Below, piece by piece: positions 42,381-43,846 of a stretch of 64,000 bases of DNA. The stretch is from an uncultured Erysipelotrichaceae bacterium. GTDB lineage: Bacteria; Bacillota_I; Bacilli_A; RF39; UBA660. The notes under the pieces were generated by a model that was not told the origin of the DNA, made no database searches, and saw only the letters and a list, made by a program, of their open reading frames with translations. How positions within the stretch are numbered: the stretch's first letter is position 1; the number at the start of each line of letters is the position of its first letter. Where the stretch lies: the NCBI GenBank assembly GCA_948442015.1, contig CAOJRP010000005.1, forward strand, positions 9-64,008, written 5' to 3'. The position numbers and the translations under genes were made by a program.

Positions 42381-42423
42381 TCTATCTATCTATCTATCTA
42401 TCTATCTATCTATCTATCTATCT
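42381..42423. repeat. Tetranucleotide microsatellite (TCTA)x10.75, i.e. (TAGA)n on the coding strand
   Basis: Read directly. It contains the stop codon of the 42414-42887 gene and ends 13 nt upstream of ATG 42367 (only the AAGGAA RBS lies between). Confidence 0.95.
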
Positions 42424-42887
42424 GCTGGTATAGCTATATCCGATGTTTGTCCATCCACTTGAAAATTAAACATATCTCCTACTACTGGTAAATCAAACTT
42501 ATAAAATAATTTAACCTTATAATAAGCTCTAAAAGGATGTGCTCCATCAGAAATATTTTCTTTCTTTATACAATAGTAATACTTACTTTTCCCATCAGCT
42601 ATTTCTTTAACGTTCATAGAACTATGTCCACTACTTATTTCTTTAATACCTGTCCAACCATTCTCACAAACACCTTTTTGTTTATAACCAGAATTTCTTA
42701 AATAATCATTAATAAGCTTTACAGCATTATCAGTTAATCCTTCATTTTTTTCAATAAAACTTATAACTTCATTTTTTACTTTAAAAGATTTAGAGTAACT
42801 TATTGAGACAGCTAAAAAAGATGAAAATAATAGTGTAAAAATAAGAACTAAACCAATTATCCACATACTTCCAAAAGATTCTCTCAT
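42414..42887 (-). CDS. Pseudopilin/TadE-like exported protein 2 (157 aa)
   Basis: Leader MRESFG plus a hydrophobic segment, then SISYSKSFKVKNEVISFIE. Paralogue of the 42892-43350 product; two Cys. Confidence 0.45.
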   Translation of the reverse strand: MRESFGSMWIIGLVLIFTLLFSSFLAVSISYSKSFKVKNEVISFIEKNEGLTDNAVKLINDYLRNSGYKQKGVCENGWTGIKEISSGHSSMNVKEIADGKSKYYYCIKKENISDGAHPFRAYYKVKLFYKFDLPVVGDMFNFQVDGQTSDIAIPADR

Positions 42888-42891
42888 ATTA

Positions 42892-43350
42892 TTACCTCGC
42901 TATTGCTACTCTTCTTGTTGTTCCATAAATAGTTGAATTAAAAAATTGTCTAAATATGGGAATATCTAGTTCATAAAATACTTGAACTTTATAATATCTC
43001 GAAGTTAAAACATCTTTATATGTACTACTATCAATTGTTTTAATACAAAATACTGGTTTATTAGTTGTAATACCTTTACTTGATAAATTATAGCCATCAA
43101 AGCCATCATCACAAACTCCATCAGCTCTATGACCTACTGACGCTAAATAATCTTGGATTTCAGCTATAGCACCTGTATCAGTTCCATGAGCATCCCAAAT
43201 ACCTTTTTTATTTTCAATAATGTTAATTATCTCATCTCGTACTTTAAAAGCCCTTGAATAATTTATTGATAAACATAAATACGATGCAAACAAAGCTAGA
43301 AATAAAATAACTATTAAAAATAACCAAGTTCCACCAATCGCTTCTTTCAA
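42892..43350 (-). CDS. Pseudopilin/TadE-like exported protein 1 (152 aa)
   Basis: Leader MKEAIG plus a hydrophobic segment, then SINYSRAFKVRDEIINIIE; two Cys. Confidence 0.45.
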   Translation of the reverse strand: MKEAIGGTWLFLIVILFLALFASYLCLSINYSRAFKVRDEIINIIENKKGIWDAHGTDTGAIAEIQDYLASVGHRADGVCDDGFDGYNLSSKGITTNKPVFCIKTIDSSTYKDVLTSRYYKVQVFYELDIPIFRQFFNSTIYGTTRRVAIAR

Positions 43351-43360
43351 TTTAATTCAC

Positions 43361-43582
43361 CTAACCTTTAAATGGACAAGAAAGAGTTACTCCTTCATAT
43401 GTACATGATACCATGCCATCACTATTCGGATCTTTTCCACAAATAGCTTCACTACATTTAGTATTTTTAACATGATTTCCTCTTATACTTGGCCATAGCA
43501 CACTAAAGAAAAAAGCCGCTAGGACACCTACGGCCACAACAACAACTACTGCTGCGTTTAATTCCCCACTTGCTTCTTTCAT
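43361..43582 (-). CDS. Small pilin-like protein 2 (73 aa)
   Basis: MKEASG-ELNAAVVVVVAVGVLAAFFFSVLWPSI followed by a 4-Cys head; GAGG RBS. Confidence 0.5.
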   Translation of the reverse strand: MKEASGELNAAVVVVVAVGVLAAFFFSVLWPSIRGNHVKNTKCSEAICGKDPNSDGMVSCTYEGVTLSCPFKG

Positions 43583-43600
43583 TTTATTACCTCAATCTAA

Positions 43601-43846
43601 TTAATCTTTATCAGCTCTATTAGCACATGTGATAGATGAATATGAACCTGCATCAGCATCGTAATATTGACAAGGACAAGTTTTATCTCCATCATTACAT
43701 TGACAAATGGCGTCAGCACACTTAGTTCCTTGTTGAATACTTGATTGAATTGAAGGCCATACTACAGCGTAGAAAAATGCTGCTACAGCGGCGATTGCTA
43801 CAACTGTGATAACTGTCATATTTAATTCTCCTGTTGCTTCTTTCAT
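43601..43846 (-). CDS. Small pilin-like protein 1 (81 aa from ATG 43846)
   Basis: MKEATG-ELNMTVITVVAIAAVAAFFYAVVWPSI followed by a 6-Cys head. GAGGAGG RBS 7 nt upstream of ATG 43846; the listed ORF start at 43879 lies inside the promoter. Confidence 0.5.
   Translation of the reverse strand: MKEATGELNMTVITVVAIAAVAAFFYAVVWPSIQSSIQQGTKCADAICQCNDGDKTCPCQYYDADAGSYSSITCANRADKD

Follow-up and report, generated by a model that had tools for sequence, protein, structure and literature searches.

A conserved family of small candidate pilin-like proteins with a shared polar leader, encoded beside a CpaF/VirB11-family ATPase in uncultured gut Bacilli

Four consecutive genes share an N-terminal leader

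The DNA analysed here is a stretch of 64,000 nucleotides (the window) from an uncultured Erysipelotrichaceae bacterium (GenBank assembly GCA_948442015.1, contig CAOJRP010000005.1, positions 9 to 64,008), and our subject is a group of four consecutive open reading frames (ORFs) on its minus strand, at 42414–43846, which we call P1 to P4. Read directly, each N-terminus opens with the motif M(K/R)E(A/S)xG and then enters a hydrophobic helix, just as a first-pass annotation made from the letters alone had described. P1 (43601–43846, minus strand, 81 aa) begins at an ATG behind a GGAGG ribosome-binding site (RBS), the strongest RBS, with an intergenic gap of 352 bp upstream. Its N-terminus, MKEATGELNMTVITVV, is made up of the leader MKEATG and a hydrophobic helix of 25 residues that runs to a WP pair, after which comes a variable head with six cysteines. 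P2 (43361–43582, minus strand, 73 aa, N-terminus MKEASGELNAAVVVVV) is a paralogue of P1 (56% identity across 48 aa, E = 2e-15) with four cysteines in the head, and both continue WPSI(Q/R) after the helix; the sizes, the continuation and the cysteine counts had all been given correctly beforehand.

The other two proteins are larger. P3 (42892–43350, minus strand, 152 aa, TTG start, N-terminus MKEAIGGTWLFLIVIL) opens with MKEAIGG and passes through a transmembrane helix into an alpha/beta ectodomain with two conserved cysteines, and its paralogue P4 (42414–42887, minus strand, 157 aa, N-terminus MRESFGSMWIIGLVLI; 34% identity to P3, E = 3e-32) opens with MRESFGS. In P1 and P2 the N-terminal helix is near-invariant and the Cys-rich head varies, which is a pilin-like pattern, and P1, a small pilin-like protein, is the candidate major subunit. 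In a comparison set of 85 related loci from distinct species, small genes of the P1/P2 type are present twice in 62 loci, once in 8 and three times in 5.

The leader is specific to these families. Within the window the pattern ^M[KR][EQ][AST].G occurs at the start of the P1–P4 genes only, and among the 3362 ORFs of the 85 related loci it retrieves 276, of which 275 belong to the P1–P4 families and the remaining one is a truncated P1-like ORF; the motif can already serve to annotate them. Across 262 homologues of P1, positions 1–12 are conserved at 80–100% (positions 1–9 at 89–100%, Gly6 at 97%) and mean conservation is 0.81 over residues 1–33 and 0.39 over the head, where the number of cysteines is even (six in 182 homologues, four in 64). 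The codons of A4, T5, G6 and L8 vary synonymously under unchanged residues, so selection acts on the protein and not on the DNA. Chance or an annotation artefact was considered as the origin of the shared start and rejected on the grounds of this codon variation, the specificity of the motif and its conservation in hundreds of species.

A fifth protein of the same gene cluster carries a version of the leader that is one residue longer. It is a bitopic protein of 149 aa (48163–48612, minus strand, N-terminus MMKTAYWGYWIIILG) that matches DUF5411 (PF17424) at E = 5e-48 and 162.8 bits, above the curated cut-off. In profile–profile comparisons of the N-termini with hhalign, the P1/P2 profile aligns to the P3/P4 profile at E = 8e-5 and the P3/P4 profile to that of DUF5411 at E = 7e-4, the N-terminal part being the sole region that the three families share; P3 and P4 have no match to PF17424, and their first ~20 residues alone align to the DUF5411 profile. 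By analogy, an N-terminus common to three otherwise unrelated families may correspond to the relation between major and minor pilins.

The family is widespread in low-GC gut Bacilli

For P1, 2111 homologues are found at E ≤ 0.01, and not one has a name. A profile search collects 684 clusters at 50% identity; at 90% identity the clusters number over 2,000, all of them without a name or a domain model. A genome scan finds relatives in at least 524 species-level genomes. The carriers are low-GC uncultured Bacilli from human, rumen, rabbit, mouse and bird guts, caecal sources included, deposited as “uncultured Tenericutes,” “Bacilli bacterium,” “Mycoplasma sp. CAG:776,” Erysipelotrichaceae or Candidatus Caccenecus, organisms of whose surface biology almost nothing is known. 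Literature on RF39, on pLS20 pili and on Tad-like conjugation in Firmicutes yielded no description of P1–P4 proteins; what emerges is an undescribed family with clear limits and a very wide distribution. In the closest relative (L006), P1 is 99% identical and the DNA about 90% identical.

The setting is chromosomal: the window contains ORFs of the size of rpoB and rpoC, FtsK and a tRNA, its GC content is about 27%, and in one relative (L004) the cluster is located between rplT and recA. A phage or plasmid origin was considered and, for this window, rejected, given the housekeeping genes around the cluster, a PHROG search that returned nothing relevant, and tblastn searches with P1 and P3 that found zero matches in 72,556 plasmids.

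Gene cluster around P1–P4

Over the 85 loci the gene order is kept as ATPase, two polytopic proteins, small proteins, larger proteins and a 351-aa protein, and the genes group into three modules. Module A comprises a 240-aa exported protein, a large surface protein, the DUF5411 protein, an RcpC/CpaB-like protein, the ATPase and polytopic proteins of 297 and 260 aa; module B comprises P1, (P2), P3, P4 and the 351-aa protein; and module C comprises a T4SS_pilin-like protein (one to three copies) with VirB6-like, PrgI-like, TraC-like and VirB4-like proteins. Modules A and B are separated in some genomes (L004; L090–L095).

The CpaF/VirB11-family secretion ATPase (45896–47338, minus strand, 480 aa with a low-complexity C-terminal tail) matches T2SSE at E = 3e-26, and its best PDB matches are CpaF (70 bits), FlaI (61) and VirB11 (60). 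Upstream of it, the RcpC/CpaB-like protein (47367–48146, minus strand, 259 aa) matches PF16976 at E = 4e-5 and TIGR03177 at E = 1e-6, both under the curated cut-offs (23.8 bits for the window protein vs. a cut-off of 28.8); 23 of 27 orthologues match PF16976 and no other family, and judged by these matches the assignment appears to hold at family level. After the ATPase follow two polytopic membrane proteins, one in the TadB position (44983–45876, minus strand, 297 aa), with conserved synteny, and one in the TadC position (44199–44981, minus strand, ~260 aa). The longest ORF for the latter, 44199–45023 (274 aa), overlaps the upstream gene, and its homologues are all 260–262 aa long, which places the true start at the internal Met, position 44981. 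It is by position and topology alone that the two fit TadB and TadC; an AlphaFold model of the ~260-aa protein (pLDDT, the predicted local distance difference test, of 62) was too poor for a fold search, the homologues being ~70% identical to one another. The 351-aa protein (41312–42367, minus strand) comes directly after P4 in 80 of the 85 loci; 3 of 25 orthologues have weak CbiA matches, its hhalign comparison to canonical TadZ gives E = 0.003 at a probability of 10%, and it is possibly a degenerate MinD/ParA-like (TadZ-like) protein at best.

At the head of the cluster lie an exported Cys-rich protein with a C-terminal anchor (52914–53636, minus strand, 240 aa) and a Cys-rich surface protein of 1426 aa (48634–52914, minus strand) that has no Pfam match. 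A large surface protein is found at the same position across loci, with a length of ~870–1860 aa and a sequence that is highly variable between species, and the position is that of the thioester adhesin gene 34 of the conjugative plasmid pLS20. At the other end, a module resembling a type IV secretion system (T4SS) occupies 34379–40607 (minus strand), with two weak T4SS_pilin-like proteins, a TrbL/VirB6-like protein (884 aa), a PrgI-like protein, a TraC-like protein (PF26593 in the orthologue of L001) and a VirB4-like ATPase. Its synteny extends to 31–36 of the 85 loci, beside housekeeping genes, and no relaxase and no coupling protein turned up in either the window or the 85 loci, which suggests a domesticated, non-conjugative T4SS.

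P1–P4 fall outside described pilin families

The first-pass annotation had named placement in an already described pilin family as the outcome that would count against it, and profile searches place P1–P4 in none. Searches against Pfam (E ≤ 0.01), NCBIfam (E ≤ 0.1) and PHROGs returned no relevant family, a single NCBIfam match of P2 to 4-coumarate–CoA ligase (E = 0.055) being spurious, and there was no match to Flp_Fap (PF04964), TadE (PF07811), N_methyl (PF07963), Class_IIIsignal (PF04021) or TIGR02532. Sequence profile searches of the PDB with P1, P3, both polytopic proteins, the 351-aa protein and the CpaB-like family likewise gave nothing significant. The negative assignment is meaningful because canonical Tad proteins of the relatives are detected readily: the same Pfam library finds canonical Flp, TadE, TadZ and T2SSF proteins in relatives, a few kb from the orthologous genes. 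As positive controls, a canonical Flp (L011:15336–15554) matches Flp_Fap at E = 2e-6 and also Class_IIIsignal, and a canonical TadE matches the TadE hidden Markov model at E = 3e-12. Complete Tad loci lie 3–5 kb downstream of the P1–P4-like module in three relatives (L011:15336–20186, L076:15046–19646 and L063:15013–17674), each with a Flp carrying G/QALVEY, two TadE-like proteins, TadZ (AAA_31), CpaF (T2SSE), and TadB and TadC (T2SSF), and GFTL(V/I)E prepilins occur near the orthologous module in two others (L051, L078); several N-terminal classes thus exist within one genome.

In layout, P1–P4 show the class III arrangement, a short leader ending in Gly and then a hydrophobic helix of ~20 residues. 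By direct reading the Flp motif G/XXXXEY is absent, position +1 is Glu (P1/P2) or Gly/Ser (P3/P4) and hence not hydrophobic, and there is no Glu at +5; the lack of the two motifs had been noticed before and holds, and the Glu at +1 noticed with it is true of the small proteins and not of the larger ones. Type IVa pilins and the pseudopilins of ComG and type II secretion systems are like P1–P4 in their leader of about six residues up to a Gly, their helix of 20–25 residues, their conserved N-terminus and their variable head; the type IVa leader, however, is basic, with Phe/Met at +1 and Glu at +5, whereas that of P1–P4 holds K/E.

Archaeal pilins that depend on EppA have Gln at +1, and the Glu of P1/P2 is likewise polar, potentially cyclisable and placed directly after the Gly that we take to be the cleavage site. 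Set against those pilins, P1–P4 lack both QxSxE and a basic residue at −2, and an EppA-like peptidase was not identified here. Tad systems are said to descend from archaeal pili.

The resemblance of the larger proteins to TadE and pseudopilins, also proposed at first pass, is one of architecture. An AlphaFold model of P3 (53 sequences, pLDDT 82.6) predicts a helix at 3–47, a second helix at 61–72 and four to five strands, an arrangement in keeping with the general layout of pilins. In profile comparisons the resemblance disappears (hhalign probability below 1% for the P3/P4 and DUF5411 profiles vs. the canonical TadE of L011, L076 and L063), and the P3 model, as detailed below, matches no pilin fold.

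Relation to pLS20-type conjugation systems and to Tad loci

Among plasmid proteins, the ATPase is most similar to the “VirB11” proteins of the pLS20 family (31–33% identity), encoded on Bacillus pLS20-like plasmids, on Enterococcus pZB18 and on a Paraclostridium plasmid. In the plasmid operons the order is adhesin, a bitopic protein of ~125 aa, ATPase, polytopic proteins of ~270 and ~240 aa, a bitopic protein of ~120 aa, duplicated 47–50-aa proteins (MLDQNTDR), VirB2-like, VirD4 and VirB6-like. Profiles of the window families find the plasmid proteins in several places: the ATPase at E ~1e-63, DUF5411 to a gene-36-like protein at E = 2.2e-7, P3/P4 to the gene-40-like protein of pZB18 at E = 2.6e-6, and the 260-aa protein to a pLS20-type gene-39-like protein at E = 1.2e-4; the profiles of the 297-aa protein and of P1/P2 have no match among the pLS20-type plasmid proteins. 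On gene order and profile matches, the window module is the chromosomal counterpart of the pLS20-type genes 36–40.

The likeness extends to the gene order of the pLS20 operon (genes 34–41), with a large surface adhesin gene upstream, and to the presence of very small, hydrophobic, duplicated proteins whose polar N-terminus is conserved. The plasmid proteins differ in lacking the M(K/R)E(A/S)xG leader; p41 of pLS20 comes after p40, whereas the small proteins of the window come before P3/P4; the plasmids have VirD4 and a MOBP relaxase (PLSDB typing), which the window lacks; and the window version is chromosomal, with RcpC/CpaB-like and 351-aa genes in addition.

The tiny plasmid proteins (L086:8011–8163; L087:12196–12339 and 12456–12599; L088:12140–12283 and 12310–12453) conserve MLDQNTDR across Bacillus, Enterococcus and Paraclostridium plasmids, followed by a hydrophobic helix, and, with a leader of another kind, may be what corresponds to P1/P2 on the plasmids.

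Tad/Flp systems are the second point of reference. Here, too, very small major subunits (73–81 aa in the window) go together with proteins of ~150 aa that share the N-terminal module only, and with a CpaF-family ATPase, an RcpC/CpaB-like protein, two polytopic genes after the ATPase and possibly a degenerate MinD-like gene. Unlike Tad/Flp, the window has no G/XXXXEY, no Flp_Fap or TadE match, no detectable T2SSF and no TadV; the heads are Cys-rich, the module is joined to VirB4/VirB6-type genes, and canonical Tad loci exist separately in the relatives. A further parallel comes from a language-model study (Miller et al. 2022), which predicted as “secretion-related” an operon of DUF5411, CpaF and PilC with several hypothetical proteins of 35–77 aa in Clostridia (PMC9523054). 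The operon, from Roseburia, Ruminococcus and Eubacterium, is like the window in its DUF5411 protein, CpaF-type ATPase, tiny unannotated proteins and large internalin-like surface protein; compared by description only, it differs in a 434-aa protein that HHpred recognised as PilC.

Leader processing and the neighbours of the module in relatives

The first-pass annotation had reported no TadV/PilD-type peptidase in the 64 kb, and this is upheld at the available sensitivity: Pfam searches of the polytopic ORFs, a phmmer search of the six-frame translation with Escherichia coli GspO and a scan for the A24 catalytic motif, with GspO as positive control, were all negative. Nor is an A24 peptidase encoded within 10 kb in the 85 related loci. 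The canonical Tad loci of the relatives have no adjacent TadV either, so its absence near P1–P4 is uninformative, and relatives with Flp and GFTLxE substrates must encode an A24 peptidase elsewhere.

From here one could argue that P1–P4 are very divergent but ordinary Flp/TadE-type prepilins, cleaved by a TadV/ComC A24 peptidase encoded elsewhere, and no new class. The A24 peptidases that the relatives must possess speak for this, as does the six-residue leader to Gly with its hydrophobic helix, which fits the class III layout. PilD reportedly tolerates many residues at +1. The absence of any Flp_Fap, TadE, N_methyl or Class_IIIsignal match, when canonical proteins of the same lineages match readily, argues the other way, together with the hhalign result against canonical TadE, the missing Glu at +5 and EY motif, platform-like proteins that are unrecognisable as T2SSF, and a whole module with a pLS20-type ancestry of its own; we regard this explanation as quite unlikely.

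The only recurrent polytopic neighbour is a divergently oriented gene for a CPBP/Rce1-like intramembrane protease (PF02517), adjacent in 30 of the 85 loci and encountered in L011, L013, L017, L020, L024, L026, L028–L030, L033, L035, L038, L039, L043, L044, L049, L052–L054, L057, L058, L062, L063, L071, L073, L075, L076, L080, L081, L085 and, in addition, L090–L095. It accompanies all three gene arrangements, adjoining P1 where module A is elsewhere and module A otherwise, is usually paired with a metallophosphoesterase gene, and occurs in the transfer region of the Enterococcus plasmid pZB18 (L086:2641–3087). It is absent from the window and from ~20 loci with sufficient flanking sequence. As a dedicated leader peptidase this protease is a candidate and a lead, and part of the association could be due simply to inherited gene order. 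Next to the CPBP gene, some loci encode a membrane-anchored thioredoxin-like protein (Thioredoxin/PedC-like, ~150 aa, with CxxC; L024, L026, L030, L038, L044, L052, L053, L057, L062, L071, L081, L090–L095), which in most of them separates that gene from the cluster and which is also absent from the window; this neighbour fits extracellular, disulfide-bonded heads, and the Cys-rich heads are probably outside the cell.

The same neighbourhood allows a different account of P1 and P2, as exported disulfide-rich peptides of ~45 residues (bacteriocin-, effector- or signal-like) whose N-terminus is removed after the WP pair, with the machine as their exporter. A conserved N-terminus before a hypervariable Cys-rich C-terminus is a leader-plus-core pattern too, a CPBP/Abi-type protease and a PedC-like thioredoxin are typical bacteriocin accessory genes, and W-P-x-I-x-S after the helix, read by eye, could be a signal-peptidase-like site. 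Yet neither of the two accessory genes is in the 64-kb window, the hydrophobic stretch, at ~25 residues, exceeds the length of a typical Sec signal, its near-invariance over hundreds of species is unusual for such a signal, and there is neither a double-glycine leader nor a C39 peptidase/ABC exporter. Moreover, the same leader stands on P3 and P4, 150-aa proteins with folded domains, and we consider this account very unlikely.

Filament subunits or parts of a secretion machine

Tentatively, and with less than even confidence, we favour the reading that P1–P4 and the DUF5411 protein are pilin-like subunits of a filament or piston module with a CpaF/VirB11-family ATPase, distantly related to Tad. 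It builds on the family itself, its conservation and synteny and its partly Tad-like, partly pLS20-like context; polymerisation, topology and any cleavage we infer. P1 and P2 would be the polymerising major subunits, the invariant N-terminal helix packing the core and the small, variable, disulfide-rich head lying on the surface, and for P3, P4 and DUF5411 the role would be that of larger minor or base subunits, with the N-terminal module alone in common. The leader and the hydrophobic helix together would act as a class-III-like sorting signal, which keeps the protein N-in in the membrane and is read at the cytoplasmic face, either by the ATPase/platform complex itself or by a peptidase whose gene lies elsewhere and which cuts after Gly6. 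The counterpart of a pLS20 module, joined to VirB4/VirB6-like genes and without a relaxase or coupling protein, points to contact, adhesion or transfer, and the system probably serves one of these functions in low-GC gut Bacilli.

A number of results weigh against this reading. Two defining features of Tad failed the tests made here. A Foldseek search of the PDB with the P3 model found no pilin or pseudopilin, the best E being 0.39, and the top matches, none of them significant (E ≥ 0.39, TM score ~0.2), are NTF2-like. The two polytopic proteins have no T2SSF (PF00482) match in 26 + 26 orthologues at E ≤ 1, and their hhalign probability vs. canonical TadB/C is below 5%, compared with 91.6% for the control of TadB vs. 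TadC. In NCBIfam the ATPase ranks VirB11 first, over TadA, and the closest characterised context of the ATPase module is a T4SS. In the paper on the pLS20 family, genes 36 and 38–41 are listed as “unknown” and no pilus homologues are reported (PMC8557374). The leader itself has a single basic residue beside an acidic one; position 6 is Ser, Ala or Glu in some orthologues, P4 orthologues being among those with Ser; conservation of Glu7 is limited to P1/P2; and charge counts by hand around the helix of P3/P4 leave the topology ambiguous. The lack of an A24 peptidase gene in the window also belongs here. The new prepilin class suggested at first pass accordingly stands in part: the undescribed family, the pilin-like pattern and the CpaF-like and RcpC-like neighbours remain, whereas the P3 fold, the TadE profile and the TadB/TadC assignment lend no support, Gly6 is not invariant and the cleavage at Gly6 is at most putative.

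Several of these results are what one would expect under the main rival, in which P1–P4 and DUF5411 are non-polymerising bitopic parts of a Gram-positive T4SS-like machine, with no leader cleavage and no filament. P3, P4 and DUF5411 would then be VirB8-like scaffolds, P1 and P2 small integral subunits like the product of pLS20 gene 41, and the leader would be retained and dock on the VirB11-type ATPase or its membrane partners. Gene order and the profile matches to genes 36–40 of the pLS20 family agree with this, as do the VirB11 top score of the ATPase, the absence of a recognisable VirB8 in the cluster of the window, the lack of a linked peptidase and the replacement of Gly6 by Ser; the NTF2-like top matches of P3, NTF2 being the fold class of VirB8, would make a VirB8-like scaffold role for P3 possible. 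Those fold matches, however, are insignificant, and a head that is variable, Cys-rich and variable in copy number on an invariant helix would be unusual for an internal scaffold. The RcpC/CpaB-like protein, furthermore, is a Tad-type part and not a T4SS part, and pLS20 has a separate VirB8 homologue in gene 53 (PMC8557374), so that gene 40 is another protein. On balance we hold the retained-leader explanation to be doubtful, though it is the one to be reckoned with first.

A bolder form of the favoured filament reading, which we think unlikely, sees in P1–P4 type-IV-filament subunits that need no A24 peptidase and that make up the missing extracellular filament of a pLS20-type T4SS, chromosomally domesticated in uncultured gut Bacilli with small genomes as an organelle of contact or of DNA/protein exchange. 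Assembly might then proceed uncleaved, with K2, E3 and E7 supplying the charge pairing otherwise given by a free N-terminus and Glu5, or cleavage might fall to another protease of the membrane, for instance the CPBP/Rce1-like enzyme encoded beside the system in many relatives.

The comparison gives a handle on pLS20 genes 36–41, which are conserved in that conjugative plasmid family without an assigned function, and connects Tad-like parts with an uncharacterised group of genes in an important family of Gram-positive plasmids. If the filament is real, Gram-positive type IV secretion gains a pilus-like element and the range of type IV filament signals widens.

Other features of the locus

At 42382–42421 the plus strand carries a perfect (CTAT)10 repeat, (ATAG)10 on the coding strand, which spans from the last codons and stop of P4 to a point shortly ahead of the RBS of the 351-aa gene. 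In the relative L006, ~90% identical, a single GATAGA stands in its place, so the repeat is a lineage-specific tetranucleotide expansion, by which spacing inside the operon could change. Between the 351-aa gene and the T4SS_pilin-like genes lies a 115-aa ORF (40701–41048) with a weak match to ORF6N (antirepressor-type), and an inverted repeat with a 13-bp stem (41024–41052) overlaps its start; the two may be an insertion remnant. The upstream flank of the cluster, where relatives have the CPBP gene, is occupied by a HipA_C-like gene (54273–55100), and a gene of the PD-(D/E)XK transposase family (33411–34142) follows directly after VirB4, both flanks hinting at local rearrangement. Finally, ~8 kb beyond the VirB4-like gene, two exported CHAP-domain proteins are encoded in tandem (24818–26827), one of which also has a cadherin-like domain and is anchored at its C-terminus; the pair might supply the cell-wall hydrolases required by T4SS-like systems, or be unrelated to the cluster.

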